Assembly (NCBI GenBank): GCA_903908245.1
Contig: CAIVRE010000002.1
Location: 90,761-154,760 of the forward strand
Length of the DNA: 64,000 bases
Direction of reading: 5' to 3'
From: Candidatus Omnitrophota bacterium
Lineage (GTDB): Bacteria > Omnitrophota > Gorgyraeia > Zapsychrales > Fredricksoniimonadaceae
How positions within the stretch are numbered: the first letter of the stretch is position 1; each line of letters starts with the position of its first letter. Both the position numbers and the translations under genes were made by a program. Below the pieces are notes generated by a model. The model searched no databases. It was not told where the DNA came from and was given only the letters and a program-made list of their open reading frames with translations. Below, in pieces: positions 34,487 to 55,748 of this stretch.

Positions 34487-36028
34487 TTAATGCTCGCGGC
34501 CTATCACAAAAGTATTCGACGCGCTCCTGACATCCACCAGAAATGGCGCGAATGCAACATCAGGCGCAGCCACTTCAACGATCTCCCCGGCCCGGACGGT
34601 CCTGGCCCTTTCCAATAACGCTCTGTCCTCGGCCCTTAAGACACCATACGCCGATCGACCAAAGTCTGGCCGATGCGCACGGACAACAGACGCCGCGGTC
34701 ATCGACAAGGCCAACAAGATACATCCCAGGAAAATGCGCGAAGGCTTGCCCAGCTCAACAGCCACAAAAATAAACATCCCGACCAAAGGGATCAACAGGA
34801 AACGGCTCTGCTGTGACCCGAAAAACCATAAAGCCCAATATACCACAACAAAAACCGCCAGGACAGGCATCTTTCGGTCCTTGAGCCTCTGCCAGGATAT
34901 CAACAGGAATGGAAATAGAGAAATCAGAAATATCAAACCTAGTGGATAATCAAAAGAATTATTCACGCCTTTTTCAGGAACAGCAATAAGCCAGAAATGT
35001 CCCATGAACGCGAGCAAAGAACGGCCATGGCCATAACCGTCCTTGATCTCTTTCCAGATACAGGAAACCTGATCCACCGAAGAAAGCCTCTCGCGATGGC
35101 CCGGCGCGCAATCATCCCGGCTTAAAACAACCCTGGTCACCGGATAAAGCGGCGTTCCCGCGACCAAAATTGATTTGGCCATGAACGGGCCGGCGACAAG
35201 AATACTGGCCAACAAAAAATAAAACGCACCCTTCTTCCAGGGATAACTGGGAAAAACAACACTCCCCCGCGCTATACGAAAAACAAGATAGGACACGATC
35301 ATCCCGATCAAGACCATCACCATCAACGCCGGCATCAACGGCTTCGACCAGAGAAAGAACGCAAACTCAACAGCCGCCAACCTTATGTTACCCGACAAAA
35401 AACTATCAACAGCCGCGAAGAACAAATAACAAAGCGCTATATCCAGCATCCCGGTCCCGACCTGAATACCAAAAGAATGAAGGCCAAACACAGCCGTCAC
35501 CGCAACGACCGATGCCGCCATCCGCCCGTTGGACCAGCGCGCCGTCAAACAAGCGGCCACGGCGGCTACTCCCAACATAAAACAAAATTGTGGCCATTTA
35601 TTAGGTAATTCCGTTGCCAGCCAGAAAGGCGCAAGGGCAAAATCAATGGGCAACAGGAAGAGATCTGCCGATGACCATGGCAAATGCGCAAAAGATCCGG
35701 CGATCAAGTGCTGACGGGGCAACGTAATATGGTAATTAATAACATCGAATTCCTGGGGCAGGTGCGGCGGAAGCAAAGACGCGGCGAATGCAACACAAAC
35801 AATAACGCCCACAAGCCCGGCCGCCGCGAATAAAAACCATTTGGGCAAGTCCAGTGCGCGGACCACGATCTTTTCACGACAGACAACCGCCAGGGCCGCT
35901 ATCGCGAACAAGACCGTCGCGATCCAGGAAGTATGCCCTGTAGAATGAGGCCAGGCATAAAGCTCCAGCCAGTAGATCGGATAACCTATTAAAAGAAGCA
36001 ATGTTGGAAGATGGGCGAGCGGTATCAT
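34487..36028 (-). CDS. polytopic membrane protein of the glycan locus, unknown family
   Basis: 513 aa with about 12 hydrophobic helices. No diagnostic motif found. Confidence 0.5.
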   Translation of the reverse strand: MIPLAHLPTLLLLIGYPIYWLELYAWPHSTGHTSWIATVLFAIAALAVVCREKIVVRALDLPKWFLFAAAGLVGVIVCVAFAASLLPPHLPQEFDVINYHITLPRQHLIAGSFAHLPWSSADLFLLPIDFALAPFWLATELPNKWPQFCFMLGVAAVAACLTARWSNGRMAASVVAVTAVFGLHSFGIQVGTGMLDIALCYLFFAAVDSFLSGNIRLAAVEFAFFLWSKPLMPALMVMVLIGMIVSYLVFRIARGSVVFPSYPWKKGAFYFLLASILVAGPFMAKSILVAGTPLYPVTRVVLSRDDCAPGHRERLSSVDQVSCIWKEIKDGYGHGRSLLAFMGHFWLIAVPEKGVNNSFDYPLGLIFLISLFPFLLISWQRLKDRKMPVLAVFVVVYWALWFFGSQQSRFLLIPLVGMFIFVAVELGKPSRIFLGCILLALSMTAASVVRAHRPDFGRSAYGVLRAEDRALLERARTVRAGEIVEVAAPDVAFAPFLVDVRSASNTFVIGREH

Positions 36029-36101
36029 CGCGCGATAAAAACAACCGCCCGCCAGGCAAGATAAACAACCGTAATAATAATGCAGTAAATATCAACCGCT
36101 C

Positions 36102-37262
36102 TCATGAAAGAATATCTCCACCCCACAACTGCTGACAAAAGTCTTGCCATGGCATGATCATAATATCCCCCACCCGGCGCATGGCGCGTTCATTACAAAC
36201 AAGGATCGCTTTCCTGGGTTTATACTGATCAACAAAAGATCGTAATCCCCGCATATCCGCGCTATCAACCCTTGAGACACCTTTAACCTCCACCGCCACT
36301 TCTCCGCCGGCCAGAACAAAGTCAACCTCATGCCCCGACTTGGTCCGCCAATAATTGATCTCAAAATCCTTACGGTCATATTCACGGAACGCGGCCAATT
36401 CCATAAAAATAAAATGTTCAAACGCTTTCCCGAAAACATCCCCTTTTAGGTCATGGATCTTCCGTTTAAGCACAGCACCCGCCACCCCGACATCAAAAAG
36501 ATAAAATTTCTCCGCCCGGGTAATAACGCCCCTGTCCTGGGATCGTTTAAAGGGAGCCACCAAACGCCCCAGAAGGGTATCCACCAGGATCTGATAATAT
36601 TCCCTGACCGTTTTCGCCTCCACACCGCAATCACGCGCGATATTCGCGAAATTCAACATTTCACCATGGGAATAACTCATGGCATCAAAGAATCTTGAGA
36701 ACGCGGGAATGTTGCGCACCAACCCCTCGCTCGCAACCTCTTCTTTCAGGTAATCCTGCACATAAGCCGTCAAAGACCGTTGCGCGTCATCCTGCAAATA
36801 GTGGGAAGGGATCAATCCGTTATTCAATGCTTTTAACAAGTTGAAGCGCGGCAATTCCGCGGAAACAAACGGGAGCATTTCATATCGCCACGCCCTGCCG
36901 CCCAAAAGATTGGCGTGCCCGCGCCTCAACTTGCGGGCGCTTGAACCGCAGAGAATGAACCGCAGCCCTTTCTCTTCGATCAAATAATGGACCTCATCCA
37001 TCACTGCCGGGATCTTCTGAACTTCATCAAGGATAACAGGATGGGAAAGCTGTACAGGCGTCAACCCCAGGATCCGGTGCCGCAGGACAGAAGGGCTTTT
37101 ACTCACATCAAAAAAAAGGTCTGTATCAAGAAAATTAAATGAAACACTATCAGGGAAATTCTTACGTAAGAATGTCGTCTTCCCCGTCTTGCGCGGGCCC
37201 CATAAAAAAGCTGACTGCCGGGAAGGAAGCTTTATTCTCAATCGACGGATCATGTTTTCCAT
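36102..37262 (-). CDS. AAA+ ATPase fused to a C-terminal PD-(D/E)xK nuclease-like domain (COG1373 / AAA_14+DUF4143 type), paralog 1
   Basis: Walker A GPRKTGKTTFL, Walker B VILDEVQKIP. The C-terminus has HEVDFVLAGGEVAVEVKGVS, a D...(D/E)xK nuclease-like motif. Confidence 0.8.
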   Translation of the reverse strand: MENMIRRLRIKLPSRQSAFLWGPRKTGKTTFLRKNFPDSVSFNFLDTDLFFDVSKSPSVLRHRILGLTPVQLSHPVILDEVQKIPAVMDEVHYLIEEKGLRFILCGSSARKLRRGHANLLGGRAWRYEMLPFVSAELPRFNLLKALNNGLIPSHYLQDDAQRSLTAYVQDYLKEEVASEGLVRNIPAFSRFFDAMSYSHGEMLNFANIARDCGVEAKTVREYYQILVDTLLGRLVAPFKRSQDRGVITRAEKFYLFDVGVAGAVLKRKIHDLKGDVFGKAFEHFIFMELAAFREYDRKDFEINYWRTKSGHEVDFVLAGGEVAVEVKGVSRVDSADMRGLRSFVDQYKPRKAILVCNERAMRRVGDIMIMPWQDFCQQLWGGDILS

Positions 37263-37336
37263 ACAGGAACAAACTCCCTTGGGGTTCTACCAATCGGGAA
37301 TATACTACATATAAGTTATACTTGCAAGGCCTTTCT

Positions 37337-38377
37337 TCATCGAAATAATTTCTTATTCTGTTCGATCCACTCCACGATCCGGGTAACGCCCTCCCGTGGA
37401 ACGACCGTCGGTTTCCATTGAAGCGATCGTTTGACTTTGGCAATATCGGAAATATAAACCTTCTGGTCGAACTTGCGCCAGTCATCAAACCCGACCTTGA
37501 CCGAACGACCCGTAATATCCTCGAGCAACCCGATGAGTTCCAAAAGCGAAAGCGTGTTGTCCGGCCCGCCGCCAATATTTAAAACAACCGAAGGGTCTTT
37601 GGACAGAATAAATTTATCGAACGCATTGACCAGGTCCCCCACCCACAGCACATCGCGCACCTGCTTACCGTCCCCGTAGATCGTGAGCGGCTTGCCCTGG
37701 ATAAACCGGATCGCGAACCAGGCGATCCAGCCCTGGTCCTCAAACCCGAACTGCCGCGTGCCATAAGTGCAGCTCATGCGAAAAACCCCGGTGCGCAAGC
37801 CGAACGACTGCGCCGCGTCCTGGACATAAAGGTCGCCCGTCAACTTGGAAACGCCATAAGGCGTATGCCCGCAATGATCAATGGAACAGGTTTCCGGCAC
37901 GCCCTTGATCGTACGAAAGACATACCGGGTCTTTTTCTCAAGGATCGGATAACGATTCACGTTATCCCCATAAACTTTATTGGTCGAACAATACACCAGC
38001 GCGGCCTTGGGGTTGGCCTGACGCAAAGCCTCAACAACATTCAACGATCCAACAGCATTGATGGAAGCATCCTCGCAGGGATCCGCCAGAGAGAACCCCA
38101 CCCCCGGCTGGCCCGCGGCATGAACTACGGCATCGGGCTTGAATTTTTTAAACGTCGCTTCCAGGATTTTACGATCGCGGATATCCGCCTTGACCAACTG
38201 GATATTCCTGAACTGTTTTAAAAAATTCCAGTTGTACTCAACAGACTTCTTGTCGACGCCAAATATCTTCGAACGCATCAGGTTGTCGTAGACCAGGACC
38301 TCACAGCCCTTGTTGGCAAAATGTTCCGCCGCATGCGAGCCCACCATCCCCGCGCCGCCTGTGATCAGTATCTTCAT
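37337..38377 (-). CDS. NAD-dependent sugar-nucleotide epimerase/dehydratase (CDP-paratose 2-epimerase-like)
   Basis: MKILITGGAGMVGSH...VLVYDNLMRSKIFGVDKKSVEYNWNFL...catalytic YxxxK. The insertion after the Rossmann motif resembles the TyvE-like subgroup. Confidence 0.75.
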   Translation of the reverse strand: MKILITGGAGMVGSHAAEHFANKGCEVLVYDNLMRSKIFGVDKKSVEYNWNFLKQFRNIQLVKADIRDRKILEATFKKFKPDAVVHAAGQPGVGFSLADPCEDASINAVGSLNVVEALRQANPKAALVYCSTNKVYGDNVNRYPILEKKTRYVFRTIKGVPETCSIDHCGHTPYGVSKLTGDLYVQDAAQSFGLRTGVFRMSCTYGTRQFGFEDQGWIAWFAIRFIQGKPLTIYGDGKQVRDVLWVGDLVNAFDKFILSKDPSVVLNIGGGPDNTLSLLELIGLLEDITGRSVKVGFDDWRKFDQKVYISDIAKVKRSLQWKPTVVPREGVTRIVEWIEQNKKLFR

Positions 38378-38426
38378 TTGTCTCTCCTGAATCGTTTGGA
38401 AAAACCCGGATCCTTAACTCAACGAT

Positions 38427-39737
38427 CTATTCCGCCAAAACATACTCCTGGAACTTCCACAACAAATAGAGCGGGATATTCCTCAACCTCTCACCGGAAA
38501 GATTGTCCAGGGATGTTGTCACCGCGATCTCCGGCGAATATCTCTTCCTGTACTCCGCAAGGCTGCGGGATCTGTTATTACGCCCGGATTTCACTTCAAC
38601 AGGCACAATCCCTGACCCGATCTGTACTATAAAATCAAGCTCTGCCAAATTATTAGACTTCCAATAAAACGGCATAGAAATACCGGAATTCAACAACTCC
38701 GTCAATACAAAGTTCTCCGCCAAAGCCCCTTTAAACTCTTTGTACACCTCCGGTCCTTGATAGATCGTCTCGGCAGGCAATTGGGCCATTTTTCTCAATA
38801 AGCCAACATCCGCCGCATACAATTTAAAGTAATTACGATCGGCATACGCGCAAAGAGGCATAAACGGTTTCTCTATCCTGGCAACTTTATGAACCATACC
38901 GGCCGCGATCAGCCATTCAAGGGCATCTTCAAGCTCTTTCGCCCTTGCCCCCGGCCTGACATGGCTAAAAATAAATTTGCCATTCTCCCTGGCAAGCTGG
39001 CTGGGAATGGACTTCCAGATCAGATTCAACCTTGGAATATCCGCTACAGGCGCGTGCTTGGCAAAATCCAGTTCGTAAGAATCCAATATCTGCTGCTGAA
39101 CCATTTCGACAGCAGAAACATCTTTTGTTTCTACCCATTTAGCAACAGCTTCCGGCATACCACCCGTAATATAATAATTTCTCAAGAGATCAACCAGTCT
39201 CCCGGTAAACAATTCAGGGATCGGCTCCGACTTCTTCAAGCCAGACAAGAAATCAAGGATATCTTTTCCCTGTTCCGCCAAAACAAATTCATAGAAACCC
39301 ATCGGGCGCAATGTCAGAAAATCAACCTTGCCGACAGGAAAAGAAAATGGCTTTGCTACGGCGATCCCGATCAATGATCCAGCGCAAACCACATGATACT
39401 CAGGCGCTTTCTCACAGAAATACTTCAAAGAGGTTAAAGCAAGGCCGCAAAATTGTATCTCATCAAAAATGATCAACGTTGCTTCAGGCCTAATGGCTTT
39501 TCCGCGAAACACGCCCAACTCTGTAACTATTCGCCGAGGATCAAGGTCCCGCTCAAAACATTTCTGTAAATGTTCATTACCTTCAAAATTAAAATAAGCG
39601 ACATCATCATAAGCTCGCCTTCCAAATTCTTTAAGAAGATAAGTCTTCCCGGACTGCCGCAACCCCTTTACTAATAGTGGCTTGCGAACCTTTGAATCTT
39701 TCCAGTTATAAAGGTCTTTTATCGCTGATCTATCCAT
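38427..39737 (-). CDS. AAA+ ATPase fused to a PD-(D/E)xK nuclease-like domain (COG1373 type), paralog 2
   Basis: Walker A GLRQSGKTYLL, Walker B LIIFDEIQFCG. The C-terminus has AELDFIVQIGSGIVPVEVKSG. Confidence 0.8.
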   Translation of the reverse strand: MDRSAIKDLYNWKDSKVRKPLLVKGLRQSGKTYLLKEFGRRAYDDVAYFNFEGNEHLQKCFERDLDPRRIVTELGVFRGKAIRPEATLIIFDEIQFCGLALTSLKYFCEKAPEYHVVCAGSLIGIAVAKPFSFPVGKVDFLTLRPMGFYEFVLAEQGKDILDFLSGLKKSEPIPELFTGRLVDLLRNYYITGGMPEAVAKWVETKDVSAVEMVQQQILDSYELDFAKHAPVADIPRLNLIWKSIPSQLARENGKFIFSHVRPGARAKELEDALEWLIAAGMVHKVARIEKPFMPLCAYADRNYFKLYAADVGLLRKMAQLPAETIYQGPEVYKEFKGALAENFVLTELLNSGISMPFYWKSNNLAELDFIVQIGSGIVPVEVKSGRNNRSRSLAEYRKRYSPEIAVTTSLDNLSGERLRNIPLYLLWKFQEYVLAE

Positions 39738-39795
39738 ACGGTCAAATATACCATAATTGGCATATAAAATGCAATAATATCTGCATTATTGGCAC

Positions 39796-40569
39796 TTAAT
39801 CGCGCTTGTTGCTCGACATAAATAAAGTCCGATGCTTGGCAATGATGCGTTTCAAATAATTGATGAGCGTGAAATACTCATTGATCGTCCGCAGGACATT
39901 GATCTTGCTCGCTCCCTTTTTCTTGCCGTAATTATACACAAAAGGGACCTCGATGATCTTGTCCGTCAAAAGGGACAGCTTGACCAGAAGCTCCGCGTTG
40001 GCCACAAACCCTTTGGATTGTATCAACCCGAACGGCCCGAAATATTCCGACGCTTTCTTGAGCACGCCCGCCCGATAGGCCCTGAAGAAAATCGTGTAAT
40101 CTTCCACGGAAGCAACAGGGAAAAATGCCCGCATCAGGCGGTTGGCGCAATGACTAAAGACCACTCTTGGTAATGGAAAATTGACATATTTCCCGCCCGG
40201 AAGATACCGCGAAGCAACCACAATATCCGCCTCGCCACTGGTAATGCGCCCGGCCATGGGCAAGACCAGGTCCTGCTCGCTCGTCTGGTCGCTTTCCATA
40301 ATAACGACCACATCATCATCGGCAGCGCCTTTAAGCGCCTCATGAATACCCGCGGAAAATACCGCGCCGACATTCATATTGATGACCGAACCCGAGATCA
40401 CAAGGTCATTGCCCTGTTCTTTTTTAAGGAATTCCAGGGAACCGTCGGTAGAACCGTCATTGACCGCGACCATCCGGTACGGCTTGCCCGCCATCATCCG
40501 GCGGATACCCGCGATAAGCCCGGGCAAATTGTCTTTTTCGTTATAAACAGGAAATATGAAATGGATCAT
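39796..40569 (-). CDS. GT2 polyprenyl-phosphate glycosyltransferase (Dpm1/GtrB/ArnC-like)
   Basis: IFPVYNEKDNLPGLIAGIRRMM...VNDGSTDGS. The likely true start is the ATG at 40569 (MIHFIFPVYNE). The track ORF extends to 40671 but that overlaps the upstream gene. Confidence 0.8.
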   Translation of the reverse strand: MIHFIFPVYNEKDNLPGLIAGIRRMMAGKPYRMVAVNDGSTDGSLEFLKKEQGNDLVISGSVINMNVGAVFSAGIHEALKGAADDDVVVIMESDQTSEQDLVLPMAGRITSGEADIVVASRYLPGGKYVNFPLPRVVFSHCANRLMRAFFPVASVEDYTIFFRAYRAGVLKKASEYFGPFGLIQSKGFVANAELLVKLSLLTDKIIEVPFVYNYGKKKGASKINVLRTINEYFTLINYLKRIIAKHRTLFMSSNKRD

Positions 40570-41651
40570 GCTTTTTTGTACCCTTTCCATGACAACAACG
40601 AATCCCACAGCCATCCCAACAGGAACGCCGCAAGCGGCATGACCCAGGTGATCTGGCGCAGGAGAAACCAATATTGTTTAAAAAGTGTCGTAAGCAACAC
40701 AAACTGAAGACCAAGGACGACAACCAGAAGCAGGAACCCGGCCTGCTTGCGCCGCTGATCATTCCACGGCACGAACAAAGCCAGCAACCCAATGGCTGTC
40801 CATTTCAACTTGGAGAATCCGATCATGTTACCGAAGATCGCCTTCAAGAACCCGCCCATATCCGCCAACGGATTAGGCAGGTATTCAAACACAGGCCGCG
40901 TTTGCTCGAACGCGGATCGCTCAAAACCAAATATCCCGAGGTTAGGCGCGGCATACCAAAGCCACATCCCGGCCAGACAACTAAAAATAAGCAGAAGATA
41001 GATCAAGAACGCCCCGGATACCGGCTCGGATCTGAGATCATTACGCCGGGAAAGGAACTGAAAGATCAACAGAAGCGTCAGAATAACAAAACTGTAAATA
41101 TGGAAACTGACAAAATAAACAAGGAACAACGCGATCAAGCCCTTGGACCAAACATTCATCCGCCGAAACCCGGTGAACAACAGGTCCAGACACAGAAACC
41201 CGCCCAAAGCCAGGATCGGCAGAACGCCGTAAGGCCGAAATTCAAACGCATGATAGACCAGGCTCTGATTCATGGCCACAACGGCAAATGTCACAACAAA
41301 CGCGAACGCTGTCCGAAAATACCGGCGGCACAGAAAATACAAGATCACAAAGCCAATGATCGCGACCAGGATATGGGGGATCATAATGCCCCACTTATTA
41401 TTCCCGAACAAGGTTACGAACGGCCAGGAGATCAGATAATCGCCGGGGAAACAGGAGAAATCGCCATAAGCATTATGCGACCAGAAATGCTTGAACGGCC
41501 CCTGGATCAAACCTAACTGATAGATCTCGTCGCCCCAAAGTTCACGCCCCGCCAGTGAAGCAAAACGCTGCTGAAGCCCCAAGAGAGACACTAACCCGCA
41601 GATCAGCGGAATACGCCAGGCGTAACATTTTGAAAAGATCCTGCCTATCAT
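40566..41651 (-). CDS. GT-C-fold membrane glycosyltransferase partner of the Dpm1-like GT2
   Basis: 361 aa, polytopic. Has an N-terminal ELWGDEIYQ motif (the W-x-DE-x-Y motif in the first extracytoplasmic loop typical of ArnT/PMT-like GT-C enzymes). Ends where the GT2 gene begins. Confidence 0.55.
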   Translation of the reverse strand: MIGRIFSKCYAWRIPLICGLVSLLGLQQRFASLAGRELWGDEIYQLGLIQGPFKHFWSHNAYGDFSCFPGDYLISWPFVTLFGNNKWGIMIPHILVAIIGFVILYFLCRRYFRTAFAFVVTFAVVAMNQSLVYHAFEFRPYGVLPILALGGFLCLDLLFTGFRRMNVWSKGLIALFLVYFVSFHIYSFVILTLLLIFQFLSRRNDLRSEPVSGAFLIYLLLIFSCLAGMWLWYAAPNLGIFGFERSAFEQTRPVFEYLPNPLADMGGFLKAIFGNMIGFSKLKWTAIGLLALFVPWNDQRRKQAGFLLLVVVLGLQFVLLTTLFKQYWFLLRQITWVMPLAAFLLGWLWDSLLSWKGYKKA

Positions 41652-41679
41652 CCCTCGTCCTTATCACTTCCCGAACCGA

Positions 41680-42906
41680 TCAAAAAGCGGTCCAAGGAAT
41701 AGCATAAATATTCGTCGCCACTGAGTAGGTCTTGCGCCCGCCATAAACAATGATCCCCTTGCCTGCTTCCGGATGGGCCGCGAGGAACTCCCGCATTGAC
41801 CGGGTATCTTTGAAATTAATTTCATTCGATGATTTCACCTCAACCCCAATAACCTGGCCGCTGGAACGGATCACAAAATCAACCTCAGCCGCTCCATTCT
41901 TTGGCCTCCAATAAAACAATTCCGGCGTGATCATCTGCAGGGAAGCCCAGGACATTATCTGTTGAAGGACAAAATTCTCAAAATAACGCCCTTTGATCTC
42001 GGTTTTACCCAAACCGCGGGAAGAATGGATCCCCGCGAGAAAACACGCCACCCCTGAATCAAACCAATAATATTTAGCCTGCTTATACGCCCTCTCCCCC
42101 TTAACGGAATATCCCTTTAATTCATACAATAAATTGGTATCCTTCAGAAGACTCATATATCTGCTGACATTTGTCCTGGTTTCGCCGCAAAACTTCGACA
42201 ATTCCTCCTGCACGCTCTCCCAGCCAGTCGCCTGAGCCAAAGCCTCCATTAATCGGCGAAAATGCTCGGGATGCCGTATCCTTACCAGATCCTGAATATC
42301 CCGTTGAATAAAAGTATCCACATAGCTGTTCATCCTCTCCAACGCGATCTTGTCGTTCCTGGCCAATACAACACCCGGCAGGCAACCCCGCCATACAACT
42401 TGCGGCATATTACCATCCGAAGATGCATCCCCCGGCTTGGCCTCTTTGCCTTCCCATATCTGATCAAATACACCCGCCGTCAACGTCGGATTTAATTCTC
42501 TCGATGAAAAACCCGTTAAATGCAAATATTTTGCCCGTCCGGCCAAAGTTTCCCGGGGAGCCTGGCGTAATGAAATATTCCCGGAGCCTGATAGAACAAA
42601 TTTCCGCTGACGATCAGACTTATCAACAAAATATTTTACTGTCACCAATAATTCGGGAGATCTTTGGATCTCGTCAATAATGGTCGGCCTGTCCTGCGAA
42701 AGCAATCCCTTGGGGTCTTCCTTGGCTTGCGCCAGGACATCCGCGTCATCCAGGGTCAAATATCGCCAATCCTTTAAAAAGCCCGCTTGCTCCAGAAGCG
42801 TGCTCTTGCCAACCTGCCTTGGCCCTGTCAGAATGACCACCGGATGCGAATGAAAAGCCTCCGCGATCCGCGCCTCCATCCGACGTGAAATATACTTCAT
42901 ACGCAA
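41680..42906 (-). CDS. AAA+ ATPase fused to a PD-(D/E)xK nuclease-like domain (COG1373 type), paralog 3
   Basis: Walker A GPRQVGKSTLL, Walker B TIIDEIQRSP. The C-terminus has AAEVDFVIRSSGQVIGVEVKSS. Confidence 0.8.
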   Translation of the reverse strand: MRMKYISRRMEARIAEAFHSHPVVILTGPRQVGKSTLLEQAGFLKDWRYLTLDDADVLAQAKEDPKGLLSQDRPTIIDEIQRSPELLVTVKYFVDKSDRQRKFVLSGSGNISLRQAPRETLAGRAKYLHLTGFSSRELNPTLTAGVFDQIWEGKEAKPGDASSDGNMPQVVWRGCLPGVVLARNDKIALERMNSYVDTFIQRDIQDLVRIRHPEHFRRLMEALAQATGWESVQEELSKFCGETRTNVSRYMSLLKDTNLLYELKGYSVKGERAYKQAKYYWFDSGVACFLAGIHSSRGLGKTEIKGRYFENFVLQQIMSWASLQMITPELFYWRPKNGAAEVDFVIRSSGQVIGVEVKSSNEINFKDTRSMREFLAAHPEAGKGIIVYGGRKTYSVATNIYAIPWTAF

Positions 42907-42976
42907 ATCTCCTTATACAAGCAGCGGGCGGACCTTGTGTCCGCCTTGCACCATTACACAAGAGCATACCATAGAA

Positions 42977-43042
42977 TTATGCACAAAAGAACAATATATT
43001 ATGCACAAGTTGACACGATATTATGCACAAATCGACACGGAT
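42977..43042. repeat. three tandem 22-bp iteron-like repeats, candidate operator
   Basis: TTATGCACAA begins at 42977, 42999 and 43021, an exact 22-bp period. The units read ttatgcacaaaagaacaatata, ttatgcacaagttgacacgata and ttatgcacaaatcgacacggat. They lie between the GT4 stop and the start of AAA paralog 3. A 7-bp hairpin, ggcggac-cttgt-gtccgcc, sits about 40 bp away. Confidence 0.6.
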
Positions 43043-44151
43043 CATGCCTCGTCATCTATTTTCAAAAAGACATCTGACATCATCTTGCCATAAACGCCCA
43101 GTGAATAACATTGCTCAAAGCGCGCCCGGTTGGCCTGGCCCATCTTCCGCCGGCGGCCTTCATCCGTAACCAGAGCGAGGACATTGGACGCCAATGCGCA
43201 GGCATCGCCTTTTGCGAACAAAAGCCCATGATCCGCATCGGGCAATATCTCGGGGATCGTGCCCTCTCTTGAGGCCACGATCGACACCCCCTCGGCCATG
43301 GCATGAAGAAGCACCAGCCCGAAAACGTCTCTCATCGTTGGAAAAATAAAAATATCCGCCGAACGGAATATCGCCGTCCGTTCACGGCTCTGATCGATAT
43401 AACCCAGATAACTCACCCTGCCCGGAAATTCTTTCTGCAGCGTTTCAAGGCGCACCGCAACAGCATCATCCTCGATCGGCCCGGCGAAAGTCAGGCGGAC
43501 ATCCCTGTGCCCTTTAAGGATCAATGGCACCGCATCAAATGCCACAAAAATACCCTTATCCCGGCTTAAATGCGAAAAATAAAGGATATTAACACCGCCC
43601 ACAGCCCGCTGATCGCCTAAAACAACCGACTTTGTATCTTCCGCCGTGCCTGGGACAACAAAGAGTTTCCCCGGCGCCATCAGCCCGTCATAACGCGGCT
43701 TCACAGCCTCGCCCATAACAATGCTCGCGGCCGCGTGTTTGAGCATCCATCGTAACATCGCCTGCTGCCACCCGGGCAAAGCATCGTAAAGCTCACGCAC
43801 ATACTGGCCATGATCATGGATCACAACCTTTTTACCCAAAAGGATCCCTGTGGCACAAAACAAAAAATCTTTCAGGAAAGGCATCTTGTAAAAACTGATA
43901 TTGTAGAGGACATACTGCGGACGATGCAACGCCAGCCGCCAAAGGTACTGGCTAAAATACTTCACCAATTTAAAAAGCTTTCCGCCGGTAACCTTCTTGT
44001 TTGTCTCATAAGACCAGAAATGCATGTCCAGGAATATAACGTCAAGGGCTTCGACGAAGGACGAGCGCATGAGCATTTCATAAAGCATGCTGTGACCGAA
44101 ATACGGCGGCGGAAGGACTCCGCAAACAAGAACGCGCACTCTTGGACTCAT
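43042..44151 (-). CDS. GT4-family glycosyltransferase
   Basis: 369 aa. C-terminal GT4 signature FPTMRDVFGLVLLHAMAEGVSIVASREGTIPEIL. Confidence 0.85.
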   Translation of the reverse strand: MSPRVRVLVCGVLPPPYFGHSMLYEMLMRSSFVEALDVIFLDMHFWSYETNKKVTGGKLFKLVKYFSQYLWRLALHRPQYVLYNISFYKMPFLKDFLFCATGILLGKKVVIHDHGQYVRELYDALPGWQQAMLRWMLKHAAASIVMGEAVKPRYDGLMAPGKLFVVPGTAEDTKSVVLGDQRAVGGVNILYFSHLSRDKGIFVAFDAVPLILKGHRDVRLTFAGPIEDDAVAVRLETLQKEFPGRVSYLGYIDQSRERTAIFRSADIFIFPTMRDVFGLVLLHAMAEGVSIVASREGTIPEILPDADHGLLFAKGDACALASNVLALVTDEGRRRKMGQANRARFEQCYSLGVYGKMMSDVFLKIDDEA

Positions 44152-47943: not shown

Positions 47944-49514
47944 TGCTCGCCTTTATTACGCGCGCTCAATTGATGGGAATACGCCCAGGCAACACCAAAC
48001 ACAGCCCAGAACGGGACTGCATTATAGGGTAATTCCAAAATGACCCCGAACTGCGCATTCACGATCCAGAAGATCAAAACACTCACCAACAACCCGCCTT
48101 GCCAGGAACGCGCCCGCAAGAAAGCCTGCACCATCCTGACAAGAGAGAAAACAAGGAAACCGATCATAGCCACTCCAACGATCCCGCCACGGTATATAAA
48201 ATACAAGAACGAATTATGCGGCATGATCCACCCATCCCTGGACCACTCTCCGTATGCGATTCGCGCTATCTCGATCGAGGTCGATCTAAGCGGCTTACCA
48301 AAACTGAAGCCAAACAAAGGCCGTTCTTGCAACAATTCCTTAAGCATATCCCGCCAAATAAATAACCGGAATACCGCGTTACCATAAGCAGGAGCTAATG
48401 CACGCAATGACCGGGGTGAATGCTTCTGAACATCAGGCGTTTCATTTTGACAAACCTTTTCACAAGAAGGCTCTCCTGAAGGGGTTATTACAAGCTTAGG
48501 AGAAGACATCTGATGTGAGGATTGCGTCATATCAGGAGCACTGGCCAGGGGAACAGGCTCACACTCTACTTCTTTTAACGGAGCTACCACCGAAACGGCT
48601 ACTGGAGGAACCAACAAAGCGTCCCCCGGCTGTTCTTCTTTGTGGTAGATCTGCGCCTGCAGCTTTAGAGGAACAAAACTATTTCTTTGTCGTTTAATAA
48701 TCTGATCATTTTCGCGATATGAATTAATGATACGCCCTGGCGTGATCATCGAGGTCGCCGCATTGCGATCTCCCCATATCCATAAACTCATGCCAAAAAG
48801 TATCCCTATGATCGAAATAAGAAGCAACTGCCGTAATAAAGAAAACCCCATAATCCTGGTGGCGTACCAGACAAGGAAAACAATGCCGGCAACAACGCCC
48901 AACAGACACCCACGCCCGTTATTTAATGTCACAAACCGGAACAAAAAAAGACAAACAAAGAATCCAACAAACCCCCACCGTAACCCACCATGAGATATAC
49001 CGAATGCAACACATAACGCCAGGATAAGAAAAATATACTGCAAGCTCACGTTCGGGAACACAACGAATATCACAGCAAGAAAAATAGCACTGAACAAACC
49101 CAACCCTTTGTGATAACCGATCTTCACCTTCCCCAAAAAGTGCTCCACAAGGATCGCAAAAACCGGATAATAAAACAACGCCGCATTGCGCAGCGCATAC
49201 GGTCCTCCGCTTATATACCCTTGCGCAGTCTTAACCATCACCCAGGTAAAATAAACCAAAACCCACAAACGCCAACCGCGCTCTGCGCGCCAGTCAACAG
49301 GATCAATAAAAAGATGCGCGATCAAAACGATCACACAAAAGATCATCAGCAGTTCGCCGACAAAGACAGGAAAATCAAGGAAAGACAACTGAACACTGAT
49401 CTCCGCGAAACGGGAACCGGCCACGGCATAAAGCAAAGTCACTAATGCCACCAGCCCAAGGCATAAATAACTTGATACCCTGATGAACATTGAAGATCTT
49501 TGCGTCATGCCCAA
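47937..49514 (-). CDS. O-antigen ligase / polymerase (Wzy_C)-family membrane protein with a long hydrophilic insert
   Basis: 525 aa. EWSRDGWIMPHNSFLYFIYRGGIVGVAMIGF matches the Wzy_C motif pair S-R-x-x-W and H-N-x-x-L...G-x-x-G. A hydrophilic insert of about 110 aa is rich in Pro, Ser and Glu. Confidence 0.6.
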   Translation of the reverse strand: MGMTQRSSMFIRVSSYLCLGLVALVTLLYAVAGSRFAEISVQLSFLDFPVFVGELLMIFCVIVLIAHLFIDPVDWRAERGWRLWVLVYFTWVMVKTAQGYISGGPYALRNAALFYYPVFAILVEHFLGKVKIGYHKGLGLFSAIFLAVIFVVFPNVSLQYIFLILALCVAFGISHGGLRWGFVGFFVCLFLFRFVTLNNGRGCLLGVVAGIVFLVWYATRIMGFSLLRQLLLISIIGILFGMSLWIWGDRNAATSMITPGRIINSYRENDQIIKRQRNSFVPLKLQAQIYHKEEQPGDALLVPPVAVSVVAPLKEVECEPVPLASAPDMTQSSHQMSSPKLVITPSGEPSCEKVCQNETPDVQKHSPRSLRALAPAYGNAVFRLFIWRDMLKELLQERPLFGFSFGKPLRSTSIEIARIAYGEWSRDGWIMPHNSFLYFIYRGGIVGVAMIGFLVFSLVRMVQAFLRARSWQGGLLVSVLIFWIVNAQFGVILELPYNAVPFWAVFGVAWAYSHQLSARNKGEQC

Positions 49515-50308
49515 TAAGCTCCATGAACAAGCTTCAATAAAGAACGCTCAACACGCGCGATCACCATAAAACAATAACGAAAGGATGCCCGCAATGATCC
49601 GGGCAAACCACGCAAGAACCGATCGTGCTCAAGCAAGGCCCGCTCCATTTCTTCTTTCTGACGCCCGGACTGTTTCTGACTTTTAGCATCCGTATGCCAT
49701 CGAAAATCCGCAAGCATCTCCGTAATGTGTTGAAACCGATAACCCCGCAAAGCAAGCCGGAGAAAAAGATCATAATCCATCGCATAATGATAACCGATGT
49801 CGAGAAAATTACCATCATCGAATACCCGGCGCTTGAAAAAAGTCGTTGTGCTGGGAATATATAGAATATGCAAATATTTCAGCATGAACATATCAAAGGC
49901 GAGCTCTTTACGCAAACGAATAAGCCTGCCCTTAAGATCAACAAGCCGGTAATCCCCATAAACAACATCAGCCTCGCCATATTCGTTGAATGCCAGCGAA
50001 ACCTTCCCAAAACACCCGGGAAGATACTTGTCATCCGCGTTCAACCAACCGACAATATCCCCCGTAGCCGCCTTGAACCCTTTATTAAGCGCGTCGCTCT
50101 GCCCCTGATCCGGCTCACAAATGACCTTCAAGTGCGGATAGCGGGCCAGCACTGAAGCTGTCGTATCCGTCGAACAATTATCCACAATAATATGCTCAAG
50201 ATCCGAATATCCTTGAGACAACACACTCTTTATCGCTTCTTCAATGAATATTCCCTGGTTAAACGAGGGGGTAACGATAGAGATCTTTAAAGAAGACAGT
50301 ACCGGCAT
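49505..50308 (-). CDS. GT2-family glycosyltransferase
   Basis: SIVTPSFNQGIFIEEAIKSVLSQGYSDLEHIIVDNCSTDTT...LNADDKY has a GT2 N-terminus and the DXD motif. Confidence 0.85.
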   Translation of the reverse strand: MPVLSSLKISIVTPSFNQGIFIEEAIKSVLSQGYSDLEHIIVDNCSTDTTASVLARYPHLKVICEPDQGQSDALNKGFKAATGDIVGWLNADDKYLPGCFGKVSLAFNEYGEADVVYGDYRLVDLKGRLIRLRKELAFDMFMLKYLHILYIPSTTTFFKRRVFDDGNFLDIGYHYAMDYDLFLRLALRGYRFQHITEMLADFRWHTDAKSQKQSGRQKEEMERALLEHDRFLRGLPGSLRASFRYCFMVIARVERSLLKLVHGAYWA

Positions 50309-50312
50309 AAAT

Positions 50313-51266
50313 TCAACTGACTCGCTGATAACGGATCAACTTCTTCACAAAAGCCTTACAGCTCTTTTGAAAAGGGTATAAGAGACGCATCATATCCGAA
50401 GAGGCCTTCCCCATGAACGACCCACCCGTATAATAATGGGGCATATATCCTTTTGCGTCACCCTGAAAATGCAAAGCATGCGCCCGAATAGTCACGCCAT
50501 CACGGCCGCTTTTGAACAACAAGGGTTTTCTATTCGCGAATCTTACCTTCTTCATCCCGTCTGTCACTGTATATTCATCCGGCTCGTACGCCGACGCCGA
50601 ATTAATATTGTTATTAAAAACACTGCCTTCACGATCCACGGCCAGATTTAAAACACTCGAAATATTCTCCCGACAGAAAAGATACAGAACCGTCATGTCG
50701 CAGATCCCGCCAGACATTCCTGTCGCCATATAATCTTTCCAGAAACCCTTTAATTTATTTAAATACTTCGGGATGGAATAACATTGAAGGATAAAGTCAC
50801 AAAACTTCTCCAGCCATTCCCGCGTCCAAAAACTTATATGAGCAGACGCTGCGCCAGACTCCTCCTGCTGCCGTGGAATAAAGCAAGCACACCCGCGCTT
50901 GTCCCGGCCATAAACCCCCATGATCTCCGGCATTGAACTGTACAACAACACATCGGAATCGAGGCACATAACGGATCGAACACCCTCGGACCTCATGTAC
51001 TCCAATAAATAAAACCATCTTAGAAAACAAACCGACTCAAACTCTTCCGAAAGAGTGCTCATATGAACATACGCCTGTTGGAACCTTGCCGCATCAGCAC
51101 CGCTCAACTTGTCCAGAGCAGCATATCCGATACCCTCATATCCACCGGAATCTCCCAATAAAACCACATCCGAATCAGGGCTACTATGCTTAGCCTGATA
51201 TAAAGCGTAAGGCAAATACCAGCTGCGGCCCCGATGAACAAATACAATTTTTGTGTCCAGATCCAT
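50313..51266 (-). CDS. putative GT-A-type nucleotide-sugar transferase with DXD motif (uncharacterised family)
   Basis: 317 aa, soluble, with VMCLDSDVLLY as a D-x-D motif in context. No closer family assignment. Confidence 0.4.
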   Translation of the reverse strand: MDLDTKIVFVHRGRSWYLPYALYQAKHSSPDSDVVLLGDSGGYEGIGYAALDKLSGADAARFQQAYVHMSTLSEEFESVCFLRWFYLLEYMRSEGVRSVMCLDSDVLLYSSMPEIMGVYGRDKRGCACFIPRQQEESGAASAHISFWTREWLEKFCDFILQCYSIPKYLNKLKGFWKDYMATGMSGGICDMTVLYLFCRENISSVLNLAVDREGSVFNNNINSASAYEPDEYTVTDGMKKVRFANRKPLLFKSGRDGVTIRAHALHFQGDAKGYMPHYYTGGSFMGKASSDMMRLLYPFQKSCKAFVKKLIRYQRVS

Positions 51267-51268
51267 TC

Positions 51269-52015
51269 TTACCCCTTAAAAATAAGACAAGTGCTACTCC
51301 AAAACTGGATGGATAATATATCCCCTTGCCGATGATCCATATCAGAAATGATCTTCTTAAAAAATTCATCCATATCCAGACGGTCATTATCCAAAGTCTC
51401 ATCCGCAGGATTGTACTTCATACCAGGCCAAACCTCCCGAACATTGCCCTGATCCAATGGAAAATAAGAACACCCCAGATCTTCTATAATGTACACGCCC
51501 CCTTTTTTCAAATGCTTGAACAAACAATCAAAACTTTTGATCATATGCTTGTTAACATGGCTTCCATCGTCAAGGATAATATCAAATCCGCCGGATTTCT
51601 TCGCCAACCCCTCCAAGACTGCCGCATCTGCCTGGCTTCCGATCTCTATACATATCCTGTTTTCCTCGAACTGCTTCGTTCCCGGATCAATATCAAGGCC
51701 ATAAATATTACTCCCGGGAAAATATCGTTTCCACATTCTCAGAGACTCACCGCGAAAAACCCCGATCTCCAGCATACTTATTGGCTTCCCCCTGAAAGGG
51801 GCCAAACACTTTGCGTACACATCCAGATAACTGACACCTTTGTACGAATGGTTTTCGTCACCCTTATCCGTTTCATAAATCCGGCCAAGCATCTGTAAAT
51901 TGCCTGAGAAAGGCAATGACAAGACAACCTCATATAAACCCCTGAGGACCTTGATCTGCCCGGGTGTTAATTTTCTTTTTAACAACTCGCGAAAACTTTC
52001 TTTCTCACTTTTCAT
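51269..52015 (-). CDS. class I SAM-dependent methyltransferase (CmcI/TylF-like, Methyltransf_24-type)
   Basis: MLEIGVFRGESLRMWKRYFPGSNIYGLDIDPG...IILDDGSH resembles the macrocin-O-methyltransferase/CmcI family. Confidence 0.65.
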   Translation of the reverse strand: MKSEKESFRELLKRKLTPGQIKVLRGLYEVVLSLPFSGNLQMLGRIYETDKGDENHSYKGVSYLDVYAKCLAPFRGKPISMLEIGVFRGESLRMWKRYFPGSNIYGLDIDPGTKQFEENRICIEIGSQADAAVLEGLAKKSGGFDIILDDGSHVNKHMIKSFDCLFKHLKKGGVYIIEDLGCSYFPLDQGNVREVWPGMKYNPADETLDNDRLDMDEFFKKIISDMDHRQGDILSIQFWSSTCLIFKG

Positions 52016-52042
52016 AATCCGGCACCCTCTCTCTTTTCATTT

Positions 52043-53212
52043 TCATGTGCACATATCTTCAATTATTGTTTGAAAAGCATCCCCAAATTGCGCGGTCCGG
52101 TCTTCCAACCGATTCCTAAGGTCATCCTTTGTGTTCAAAAACCCCGGCGCTTCACTTATTGACCAAGCCATTCTTATCTTATCCGCCAAACTCTTGGGAT
52201 CCTTCGGATCAAAATATATTCCCCCAACCGGATCCTGTTCCCGATGGACAGGGATATCAGAAAGCAGTATCTTCTTCCCAATACTTTTACACTCCTCAAC
52301 CGTCGTACTCCAGCCTTCAAATAACGATGGATTAACTACTGCTAACGAGGCCGCGTAAAGAAGAAAAACATGCTCAAAAGGAACCCGGCCCAACAAAAGA
52401 ATATTTTTCTGCAAACCCCAATGAACAATAAACTCCCTTAAACCGTCGCTGTGTTCCTTATTCCTGCAGTTATCCATTGACCCGCTGCAAACAAGGACAA
52501 CATCCAATCCCTCGCTTTTCAAAAGGCGTATTGCCTCAAAAACAACAGCATGATTCTTATGTTTCCAGAATTGATTGGGCAAGTACAGGAATTTAGCAGG
52601 CAGATCATACTTTTCCCTGATCAACTGAATATCTTTTTCATGAAAGTCGAAGAATTTACGGTCAACCTGGCCAACAAATGTCAGTACCCTTGCTTTGGAT
52701 GAAGCCCCCGGAGAAAACAATTCAAGATCTTTCATTGCATCACGGCTGCTAAGAATGATCCGGCCGCTTGTTGTTGCCGCCACCTTGAAACTTTTATCTC
52801 TCGATATTAAATCTCTCTTTGTAAATAACTCTCCCAAATGCATATGCTGAAAATCAGCTATCCAGGCAATATCCCTGACCTTGTGGAATGCGAACAAACT
52901 GGGAGTATGAAAAATCACCCGAATATCGTTTTTCAACAAAAACGATTCAAAAAGACCCTGTCCACATCCCAGAAGTCCAAAGGATCTTGAAATAACCCAT
53001 AAGAGAGAATACCGGTCCAGAAGCGGCGTTGTAATGATCTCAGCATATTGGGAATAAGCATCAATCGTATCGCGAGATGCCCCCGTCCCCAGAAAAATAA
53101 CCGGCGTAATCATTCGGTCTTTAATCTTTGAAATAGCATACAAAAGATTTTTTAAATAATTCTGCCCGCCGAGCCATTCACCCGAGAGGCCAATAAAACC
53201 GACACGGATCAT
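52043..53212 (-). CDS. GT4-like glycosyltransferase (paralog of 56600..57838)
   Basis: FWKHKNHAVVFEAIRLLKSEGLDVVLVCSGS...NPSLFEGWSTTVEECKSIGKKILLSDIPVHREQ. These motifs are shared with the gene at 56600. Confidence 0.75.
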   Translation of the reverse strand: MIRVGFIGLSGEWLGGQNYLKNLLYAISKIKDRMITPVIFLGTGASRDTIDAYSQYAEIITTPLLDRYSLLWVISRSFGLLGCGQGLFESFLLKNDIRVIFHTPSLFAFHKVRDIAWIADFQHMHLGELFTKRDLISRDKSFKVAATTSGRIILSSRDAMKDLELFSPGASSKARVLTFVGQVDRKFFDFHEKDIQLIREKYDLPAKFLYLPNQFWKHKNHAVVFEAIRLLKSEGLDVVLVCSGSMDNCRNKEHSDGLREFIVHWGLQKNILLLGRVPFEHVFLLYAASLAVVNPSLFEGWSTTVEECKSIGKKILLSDIPVHREQDPVGGIYFDPKDPKSLADKIRMAWSISEAPGFLNTKDDLRNRLEDRTAQFGDAFQTIIEDMCT

Positions 53213-53223
53213 TGTGCGCTCTC

Positions 53224-53847
53224 CTATACTTCCAATTGCTTGACTACACGCGCCGGATTACCGGCAACAATGGATCCTGCCGGAACATCTTTGGTCACTA
53301 CGCTTCCGGCGGCAACAATACTCCTCGCGCCGATCGTTACCCCTTTTAATATAATAGAATTACAACCGATCCAGACATCATCTTCGATCAAAATAGGCGC
53401 CGATACAATATCAGCAACAGTTCTCGACCCTGCATCTCTGGGATACCCTTCCATCACGATCTTGACAAAATGCTCATGCCTTACATCTGCCTCAAGAGGA
53501 TGACAATTCGTATCCTGGATATTAACCCCATGAGAAATAAGAACCCTGTCTCCGATCTTAACCTTCACGGCAGAAAATATCCTTGAATCCAGCCCGAGAT
53601 AACACCATTGCCCAATTTCTATATTCCCACCATGGCCAAAAACAAGTAAAACACCCTGAAGAACCGTATTGGCACCCACATTTATAATATTGGGATCTTT
53701 TAAAGCATTCTCGATCTTCGCGCCATCCAACAATTGCGCGCTTCGATGAATAGTCGCGACCTGTCGATAATATAACTCATGGAAAAACAGTCCCAGCCCT
53801 TCCAGCTTCTTATAAAAGAGATATGGCAACTTTAACAGTTTCTTCAT
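53224..53847 (-). CDS. hexapeptide-repeat (LbH) sugar O-acetyltransferase
   Basis: [45 protein letters not shown]. Confidence 0.85.
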
Positions 53848-53871
53848 TGATACCCCTGCGTTTAACTTCTT

Positions 53872-54789: not shown

Positions 54790-54818
54790 TTAATCCCCCG
54801 AATATCCCAATTCAATAA

Positions 54819-55736: not shown

Positions 55737-55748
55737 AGTGCTATATCC

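Follow-up and report, generated by a model that had tools for sequence, protein, structure and literature searches.

Three divergent AAA+ ATPase-nuclease genes of the PDC-S01 family lodged in a polysaccharide operon of an Omnitrophota bacterium: probable self-contained defence or selfish genes

The stretch of DNA analysed here, referred to as the window, comprises 64,000 nucleotides of a Candidatus Omnitrophota contig (CAIVRE010000002.1, positions 90,761 to 154,760) and contains three genes, designated A1, A2 and A3, each of which encodes an AAA+ ATPase joined to a DUF4143 domain. Nearly all genes in the window lie on the minus strand. Its left third is occupied by housekeeping genes (dnaG, smc, the Opp transporter, tpiA and pgk), and a single, very long polysaccharide locus extends from ∼27.6 kb to the end of the window. 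This locus includes two Wzy-like genes, a GDP-mannose dehydratase, a Bac_transf priming transferase and WecG, together with many methyltransferase, acetyltransferase and glycosyltransferase genes, the last belonging to families 2 (GT2) and 4 (GT4). In coding-strand order, the genes around the ATPases are GT4, A3, a gene for a GT-C-like membrane glycosyltransferase (GT-C), GT2, A2, an epimerase gene, A1, a 26-residue open reading frame (ORF), a gene for a 513-residue membrane protein and WecG (Table 1).

An earlier note on this DNA had described three COG1373-type proteins whose genes alternate with glycan genes, namely the epimerase, the GT2 and GT-C pair, and GT4. The arrangement is as described, and the family assignment was borne out by profile hidden Markov models (HMMs). 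For A1, A2 and A3, respectively, Pfam AAA_14 scored 66, 80 and 88 bits (gathering cut-off 27) and DUF4143 scored 108, 119 and 121 bits (gathering cut-off 28.1). All three proteins also matched PADLOC models of the defence candidate PDC-S01, with a different best model in each case (A1, 166 bits; A2, PDLC04786, 553 bits; A3, PDLC04790, 338 bits). No NCBIfam model covered any of them, and a sequence search of the PDB with the ATPases returned no solved relative. Three members of the family were found within 6.8 kb and none in the remaining 57 kb of the window, and the same family HMM recovered one member in 80 comparable polysaccharide loci centred on Bac_transf genes (1.30 Mb), where it lay outside the glycan genes. 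The presence of three copies in 6.8 kb is far beyond chance. PADLOC detected no further defence-like genes among the unannotated ORFs of the window, which also contains no tRNA genes or Rfam RNAs.

Table 1. Positions of the ATPase genes, their putative control regions and the adjoining genes in the window
Feature	Position	Strand	Description	Basis
26-residue ORF	36025-36105	-	Hydrophobic, conserved; MRAVDIYCIIITVVYLAWRAVVFIAR	Translation; homologous small ORFs in L005, L011 and L015
A1	36102-37262	-	386 residues; AAA_14, winged helix-turn-helix and DUF4143 (PD-(D/E)XK, predicted); A1 subtype of PDC-S01	Pfam, PADLOC
A1 promoter (putative)	37299-37327	-	TTGCAA-N17-TATATT, then conserved leader CCCGATTGGT	Consensus scan
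Epimerase	37337-38377	-	NAD-dependent sugar epimerase/dehydratase; host gene between A2 and A1	Pfam
A2	38427-39737	-	436 residues; AAA_14 and DUF4143; A2 subtype	Pfam, PADLOC
A2 upstream region	39745-39790	-	Palindrome-like AATAATGCAGATATTATTGCATT, then putative extended -10 element TATGGTATATT	Sequence
GT2	39796-40569	-	ArnC/AglJ-like polyprenyl-phosphate glycosyltransferase, 257 residues; host gene	Pfam, NCBIfam
GT-C	40566-41651	-	GT-C-like membrane glycosyltransferase; host or cargo gene	Weak PMT_2 match (Pfam E 1.3e-4, below gathering)
A3	41680-42900	-	406 residues; AAA_14, winged helix-turn-helix and DUF4143; A3 subtype	Pfam, PADLOC, AF2 model
Hairpin	42927-42945	-	GGCGGAC-ACAAG-GTCCGCC, GC-rich; window A3 copy only	Sequence
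A3 operator/promoter (putative)	42963-43038	-	Three 22-bp direct repeats, then extended -10 element TATGGTATGCT (42973-42963)	Repeat search
GT4	43042-44151	-	GT4 glycosyltransferase; host gene upstream of A3	Pfam

The three copies are only 20-25% identical to one another, in agreement with the earlier description of them as strongly divergent. A1 and A3 share 25% identity (E 3e-31), and the similarity of A2 to either is local, being confined to the surroundings of the Walker motifs and of the C-terminal motif. A2 additionally carries ∼60 residues behind the ATPase core. A1, A2 and A3 are members of three different subfamilies of the AAA_14-DUF4143 family (COG1373, PDC-S01). For A3, the most likely start is the ATG at 42900 rather than the TTG at 42906, an AAGGAG sequence lying 8 nucleotides (nt) upstream of it and the homologues agreeing.

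Walker B (hhhDE(V/I)Q) and a C-terminal E(V/L)DF(V/I)...VEVK(G/S) motif are present in A1, A2 and A3, as had been claimed. The Walker A pattern given in the earlier note, GxxxxGK(S/T)T, fits A1 (GPRKTGKTT) and A3 (GPRQVGKST) but not A2, in which the motif ends in tyrosine (GLRQSGKTY). Alignment of 127 sequences from the three subfamilies revealed invariant residues at G26, G31, K32, D76, E77, Q79, E308, D341, F342 and E354; K356 is nearly invariant (at least 90% conserved). The catalytic E, D and E-x-K residues, all of which are present in A1, A2 and A3, were also invariant in a 40-sequence alignment of the domain.

A confident AlphaFold2 (AF2) model of A3 built on the 127-sequence alignment (predicted local distance difference test score 88.5, predicted template modelling score 0.91) resolves into three parts; like all structures discussed here, it is a prediction. 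The first is an AAA+ core, which among solved structures comes closest to the archaeal ATPases 2fna and 2qen, Orc1/Cdc6, RuvB and clamp loaders. A winged helix follows, with helices at residues 211-223, 231-238 and 242-254 and then a β hairpin. The third part is a C-terminal α-β-β-β-α-β core of restriction-endonuclease-like type, in which the first helix carries E308, the second strand D341 at its start and the third strand E354-x-K356. The R2 retrotransposon nuclease was among the fold matches of this domain. The best PDB matches of the full-length model were 2fna, 2qen and 2qby_B, with template modelling scores of only 0.25-0.51. The C terminus is predicted to adopt a PD-(D/E)XK endonuclease fold with a complete catalytic signature, in keeping with the nuclease-like motif that the earlier note had pointed out.

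DUF4143 was assigned to the PD-(D/E)XK superfamily in 2012 (PMC3424549), and PDC-S01 has been described as a widespread and very abundant ATPase plus PD-(D/E)XK candidate, often present in several copies and reported as the fourth commonest “defence” gene of prokaryotes (PMC12988326). The PDC genes were discovered through their embedding in BREX, DISARM and type I restriction-modification (RM) operons (bioRxiv 10.1101/2024.01.29.577857). No PDC-S01 member has been validated for protection (PMC12988326; bioRxiv 10.1101/2024.01.29.577857), and no functional study of DUF4143, COG1373 or PDC-S01 was found in the literature searched. The statement that the family has no known function was correct, and the family had already been catalogued as a defence candidate. 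A Thermus homologue is induced 6.6-fold in the presence of a plasmid (PMC4406477). The family profile recovered 20,594 clusters at 50% identity (E ≤ 1e-10), and among 2.9 million viral contigs only 25 distant members (22-32% identity) were detected. The possibility that the family is phage-borne was rejected on account of this near absence from viral contigs.

Related loci were obtained by scanning species-representative genomes with the priming transferase, the best matches being Candidatus Omnitrophota metagenome-assembled genomes (MAGs) at up to 87% identity. Approximately 20 of these share the layout of the window, with pgk-tpiA-opp on one side and a polysaccharide locus on the other, and none of them carries an ATPase gene at the junctions occupied by A1 and A2. 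In the closest relative (locus L005), GT2, the epimerase gene, the small ORF and the membrane-protein gene are contiguous, with overlapping stop and start codons of the ATGA type and no scars. The junction between GT2 and the epimerase gene is likewise free of an ATPase in L006 and L015, and that between the epimerase and membrane-protein genes in L011 and L015. When the DNA of the window is compared with that of L005, homology is lost exactly at the two ATPase genes: at A2 the window has 1.45 kb where L005 has 19 bp, and at A1 it has 1.27 kb where L005 has 35 bp. Identity to L005 is 86% for the epimerase and 82% for GT2, a conservation close to that of housekeeping proteins (90% for phosphoglycerate kinase and triosephosphate isomerase). 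The G+C content at third codon positions (GC3) is 0.49-0.54 in the ATPase genes and 0.61-0.66 in their neighbours. Because the relatives have the same glycan genes adjoining one another without an ATPase, the simplest reading of this comparison is that A1 and A2 are lineage-specific insertions into a vertically inherited operon.

The position of A3 offers no comparable empty site, and gene content at this junction, upstream of GT2, varies among relatives; an insertion of A3 is accordingly only suggested, by its portable promoter and by the location of its homologues elsewhere. The GT-C gene next to A3 has no orthologue in 21 related loci (L005-L025) and is, on that evidence, a recent addition. 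GT4 orthologues in L011 and L007 adjoin the epimerase gene or lie near it.

The edges of the inserts are tight. The ATG of the 26-residue ORF overlaps the A1 stop codon, and its own stop overlaps the start of the membrane-protein gene, both overlaps being of the ATGA type; on its downstream side, the A1 insert ends precisely at this ORF. The spacing from an ATPase stop codon to the start of the following ORF is 0-49 bp; after A2, where it amounts to 49 bp, most of the spacer is insert sequence. Apart from short matches at chance level, no repeats bounding the ATPase genes were found that could represent insertion sequence ends, att sites or cassette recombination sites. Domain scans of the window revealed no transposase and no integrase, and the ATGA(A/G) present at both edges of A1 is too short to count as a target duplication.

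A distinct conserved 5′ region accompanies each subtype wherever it is found. Upstream of A1-type genes, the sequence TTGaca-N17-GTATACT-CC(C/A)nATTGGT was observed in five loci, the window and the unrelated contexts L090, L092, L159 and L160. ATGCA-N-ATTGC and TG-n-TATGCT-like elements precede A2-type genes in L094 and L161 as in the window, a conservation that is weakly established with three loci. In the A3 type, a repeat core, TTGTGCATAA, lies over the promoter in ∼30 unrelated loci (L085, L087, L089, L022 and L096-L124), and about 30 of the 33 A3-type loci contain three (range 2-4) direct repeats at a spacing of exactly 22 bp, with the consensus aTGTtgaTTTGTGCATAAtttT (71 units). The TGTGC cores are located at -89, -67 and -45 from the ATG, followed by the extended -10 element and an AAGGAG ribosome-binding site. 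The last repeat is located between positions -35 and -10, as would suit a site of repressor action. In the window, the cores TTGTGCATAAT lie at 43030, 43008 and 42986 (array 42976-43030), and the array is 40 nt farther from the ATG than elsewhere, as a leader segment of ∼40 nt that holds the hairpin sits between the -10 element and the ribosome-binding site. This segment may represent a leader with a regulatory role or, alternatively, a small repeat that was inserted. The repeat motif was absent downstream of the gene in 26 A3-type loci. A “TGCATWAT” motif common to all ATPase-flanking spacers was also considered and was dropped, its copy downstream of A1 lying within the 26-residue ORF.

Changes in the A3 repeat core are accompanied by changes at residues 241, 243 and 248 in the predicted recognition helix. 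Core TGTGCATAA occurs with helix TRT-NVSR-Y in more than 20 loci, TGTGAATA(A/T) with TRS-NVSR-H in L112, L123 and L128, TGTGCACAA with KRS-NVSR-H in L111, and TGTACATAA with NRV-NVSR-Y in L124 and L106. L112, L123 and L111 are not mutual nearest relatives. Since core and helix change together, the comparison suggests that the A3-type protein binds its own operators and would thereby regulate its own expression. No convincing terminator was found after A1, A2 or A3 in the window, and for this reason the inserts probably drive the downstream glycan genes too.

Homologues of the three subtypes are distributed across different phyla. The A3 subfamily occurs in Omnitrophota and Chlamydiota, with more than 120 clusters at 68-85% identity. 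Homologues of A1 (65-90% identity across phyla) belong to Desulfobacterales, Aminicenantes and Proteobacteria, and those of A2 (60-80%) to Elusimicrobiota, Clostridia and Actinobacteria. Their surroundings are equally varied. An A3-type gene (82%) lies between rplT and conjugative Tra genes, at the edge of a conjugative element; another (72%) lies between AbiEii and a type III RM system; a third, in L022, stands beside tpiA. The MAG that contains L005 carries an A3-type gene (75%) on another contig, between rlmL-like (rRNA methylase) and nhaP-like (Na/H exchanger) genes and near a PIN toxin gene. A1-type genes were found between ftsW and murG of the dcw operon, accompanied by toxin-antitoxin genes (87%; L090/L091); after AbiEii and ahead of lipopolysaccharide (LPS)-type genes and a second family member (83%; P0124 context); adjoining a YhcG nuclease gene and heptose/epimerase genes (76%); between HAD hydrolase and H+-pyrophosphatase genes (76%); and between GT2 and GT4 genes, where another divergent paralogue follows two genes later (68%; L159). 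A2-type genes lie within a nucleotide-sugar cluster (71%), beside radical-SAM and pilin-like genes (69%) and beside an efflux operon (68%). Fic genes are also among the neighbours of close homologues.

A metagenome scan added 38 A3-type loci. Their neighbours are in part of housekeeping kind (M48 peptidase, ApbE, pyruvate:ferredoxin oxidoreductase, SmpB and an ABC transporter) and in part of defence or mobile kind (a second family member, HipA, an AbiEii-like gene with a STAND protein, a serine recombinase and SMODS/AGS-C). In essentially each of 25 independent contexts the neighbours differ, and no conserved partner gene emerged; genuine defence or toxin-antitoxin genes make up roughly one third of the neighbours sampled. 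Glycan clusters account for four of the 25 contexts, comprising three of five for the A1 type and one of three for the A2 type. In an insensitive phmmer screen with the window's own proteins, none of the 17 independent A3-type contexts was embedded in a glycan cluster, and the A3-type loci of the metagenome scan had essentially no glycan genes in their vicinity. The association with variable glycan cassettes proposed in the earlier note consequently fails for A3 and survives as a weak link for A1 and A2.

Several features of these loci are recorded in their own right. In L090/L091 (7001-11391, an Omnitrophota-like contig), a block of ∼4.5 kb interrupts the highly conserved dcw operon at ftsW/murG; it comprises the A1-type ATPase, an XRE-type helix-turn-helix gene, a PhdYeFM-PIN toxin-antitoxin pair and an HTH_24 protein, and another PIN gene follows murG. 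In L159 (4309-10054) and the P0124 context, two mutually divergent AAA_14-DUF4143 genes lie a few genes apart among glycosyltransferase and LPS genes (GT2, GT4 and APS kinase; GT9 and Wzy_C), in loci that are non-homologous to the window; the L159 GT4 was rejected as an orthologue of the window GT4 (23% identity). An apparent tRNA or tmRNA 3′ end lies within ∼50 nt downstream of the A3-type gene in L110 (GGTTCGAGTCC...CCA) and in L115, where it reaches the contig edge before CCA, and in L121 (7016-7477) the A3-type gene adjoins smpB. The neighbourhoods of tRNA, tmRNA and smpB genes are classical integration hot spots.

Some of the glycan genes also merit description. The GT-C and GT2 pair resembles side-chain glycosylation pairs of the ArnC/ArnT or GtrB/GtrC type; GT2 most likely starts at 40569, as in the L001 gene call, and is translationally coupled to the GT-C gene upstream. 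The GT4 product scores above gathering for PF20706, “Family 4 glycosyltransferase in conflict systems” (31.6 bits, cut-off 26), while its general GT4 matches are far stronger and it has no PADLOC match. Homologues of the 26-residue ORF directly follow the epimerase gene in L005, L011 and L015 and share Y-x-A-W-R-x-x-x-F (Y-x-x-W-R in L011); the C terminus is Q-R in L005 and L011 and A-R in the window. The product probably serves the glycan module as a small membrane subunit, and the ORF is likely to be unannotated in most genomes. In the distal polysaccharide locus (48000-56000), the G+C content is 0.43-0.47, compared with ∼0.53-0.55 in the housekeeping part, a drop that suggests that the outer glycan genes are foreign or recently exchanged.

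Taken with the empty sites in relatives and the varied contexts of the homologues, which support the earlier suggestion that a defence or selfish element has lodged in a variable locus, these observations make it probable that A1, A2 and A3 are self-contained genes of this kind rather than machinery for cassette exchange, defence being the favoured function. Each unit, of ∼1.3-1.45 kb, would comprise little more than a single ORF and a short promoter/operator specific to its subtype. Those of A1 and A2 would have entered junctions of a conserved polysaccharide operon in the lineage of the window, and all three, being co-oriented with the operon and having no terminator behind them, would allow operon transcription to read through. 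Each protein would join three modules: an AAA+ ATPase of ORC/Cdc6-like type, in which Walker A and Walker B are both intact, a winged helix-turn-helix (wHTH) and a PD-(D/E)XK endonuclease with an intact E...D...ExK signature. The wHTH would bind DNA, and ATP binding or hydrolysis may gate the nuclease against foreign or aberrant DNA, which would make the protein a single-chain equivalent of restriction systems that pair a motor with a nuclease, such as McrBC. When not so engaged, the protein probably represses its own promoter through the repeated operators. The glycan locus may have served as a site by virtue of being a variable region, long, co-directional and prone to recombination, in which embedded genes are tolerated; the ATPases would act neither on glycans nor on cassette exchange.

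Defence takes first rank on the grounds that elsewhere many of the adjoining genes belong to defence or toxin-antitoxin systems, that the architecture parallels that of motor-plus-nuclease restriction systems and that the Thermus homologue is plasmid-induced. A number of points weigh on the other side. The mechanism is drawn from predicted fold and context only, and no transposase, terminal repeats or att sites were found that would account for the entry of a single gene into a junction. The co-variation of repeat and helix rests on three or four lineages only. The four glycan-cluster contexts, three of them of the A1 type and two containing two divergent paralogues among glycosyltransferase genes, leave a weak link, functional or mechanistic, between the A1 type and glycans. 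The contexts sampled are few, with a bias towards long contigs, and the A3 glycan screen relied on the insensitive phmmer search. Finally, the comparison with relatives was one of loci and not of a species tree, so that ancestral presence with repeated loss keeps a small probability.

The alternative that retains substantial weight, while being unlikely overall, is that the ATPase-nuclease is a selfish operon-embedding gene that serves its own spread or retention, by homing-like cleavage of empty junctions or by addiction. The frequent embedding in operons that earned the family its label as a defence candidate would then be insertion behaviour, not immunity. Consistent with this, the inserts sit exactly at gene junctions with translational coupling kept, as the overlap of the A1 stop with the small-ORF start and the ATGA(A/G) at both edges indicate, and the gene travels with its own promoter. 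Members of the family are embedded in non-defence operons (the glycan operon of the window, dcw in L090, and the glycosyltransferase clusters of L159 and the P0124 context), PDC genes are defined by embedding alone, and PD-(D/E)XK domains occur in some homing endonucleases and in the R2 retrotransposon. By contrast, no conserved target site was apparent, the neighbours of A3-type genes differing at nearly every locus; there are neither terminal repeats nor clear target duplications; known homing endonucleases have neither an AAA+ module nor a wHTH accompanied by operator repeats; and the proportion of defence and toxin-antitoxin neighbours is as expected for defence islands. Embedding here and in dcw fits a defence gene that settles where it is tolerated and, equally, a selfish gene with its own mobility.

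A wider proposal, which appears quite unlikely on the present data, is that PDC-S01 genes are self-regulated units that actively embed at the junctions of long operons of any kind, whether glycan, cell-division or defence. The wHTH would read the carried operators, the ATPase-gated nuclease would promote the insertion or retention of its own gene, and embedding would be a signature of mobility rather than of immunity. If true, this reading would turn the “defence candidate” label of PDC-S01 into a sign of element mobility.

A glycan-linked role, in which the ATPase-nucleases mark or promote the exchange of glycan cassettes or otherwise act on the polysaccharide locus, is very unlikely. It draws on the position of A3 and A2 on either side of a GT-C and GT2 pair whose GT-C member lacks an orthologue in the relatives, on the variable gene content upstream of GT2, and on the A1- and A2-type genes in glycan clusters of other genomes, twice with a second divergent paralogue a few genes away. 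The earlier note had raised such a role, with an ATPase-nuclease bounding swappable cassettes, and the comparison with relatives does not support it. The GT2/epimerase and epimerase/membrane-protein junctions are intact and ATPase-free across L005, L006, L011 and L015, with nothing swapped there, and the A3-type gene of the closest relative is at an unrelated locus. Moreover, no junction repeats are fit to serve as recombination sites, and the Bac_transf-centred loci and the A3-type contexts contained, respectively, one family member outside the glycan genes and no embedded case. General enrichment of the family in polysaccharide loci was rejected for both of these sets; the A1 type, by contrast, does recur in glycan clusters.

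An ancestral presence of the ATPase genes at the locus, followed by loss from the relatives, is most improbable. In its favour, non-essential genes are commonly deleted; against it, the genes are absent from at least five relatives spanning 65-87% priming-transferase identity, the two closest included, the junctions of relatives are scarless ATGA-type overlaps, ATPase GC3 differs from that of the neighbours, and the nearest homologue of each ATPase lies in other contexts and other phyla. Three classes of known element were rejected, namely an insertion sequence or transposon (no transposase domain, bounding repeats or adequate target duplication), an integron gene cassette (each unit has its own 5′ promoter and the window contains no integrase) and a free-standing homing endonuclease gene (no recurrent insertion at one homologous locus).

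The favoured reading of A1, A2 and A3 as self-contained defence genes bears on an abundant, uncharacterised family (more than 20,000 clusters at 50% identity). The locus offers a clean comparison of filled and empty sites, in which the gene behaves as a portable one-gene unit able to sit in a non-defence operon, and the comparative data provide a concrete regulatory model of three 22-bp operators over the promoter, predicted to be read by a specific helix. They also counsel caution, as embedding in an operon is in itself no proof of shared function, for glycan and phage-defence operons alike.

Among known systems, homing endonuclease genes and integron cassettes resemble the units described here in being single genes with little extra DNA, placed between conserved genes and absent from the same junction in close relatives. 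Homing endonucleases differ in that homologues of the window proteins at 70-87% identity occupy different loci in different genomes, with no conserved target, and the protein is a large ATPase; integron cassettes differ in that the window units lack attC and an integrase and carry a promoter at their 5′ end. Can2/Card1 and Cap4 are activated by cyclic nucleotides through CARF or SAVED domains, whereas the regulatory module of the window proteins is an AAA+ ATPase. McrBC consists of two subunits, the AAA+ motor McrB and the PD-(D/E)XK nuclease McrC, uses GTP and has an N-terminal reader of methylated DNA; the window proteins are single chains with a predicted ORC/Cdc6-like AAA+ core and a predicted central wHTH and show no sequence similarity to McrBC. 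SSO1545 (2fna), PAB2304 (2qen) and Orc1/Cdc6, the best full-length structural matches (template modelling scores 0.44-0.51), have an AAA+ core and then a winged helix, an order also predicted for A3, but they have no C-terminal nuclease and their functions are different (replication initiation) or unknown. The A3 type further resembles Orc1/Cdc6 and plasmid Rep proteins in having repeated binding-site-like elements beside its own gene; unlike those of Orc1/Cdc6, the A3 repeats lie over a promoter, with nothing to suggest an origin. For PDC-S01 itself, portable promoter/operator arrays and an empty-site comparison have not been described, as far as the literature was searched. The operon that hosts the window genes is a polysaccharide operon and not BREX, DISARM or type I RM, but the likeness is otherwise close: the domain architecture is the same, the organisation is that of a single gene, all three copies give strong HMM matches, and the family was itself found through embedding within multi-gene operons.

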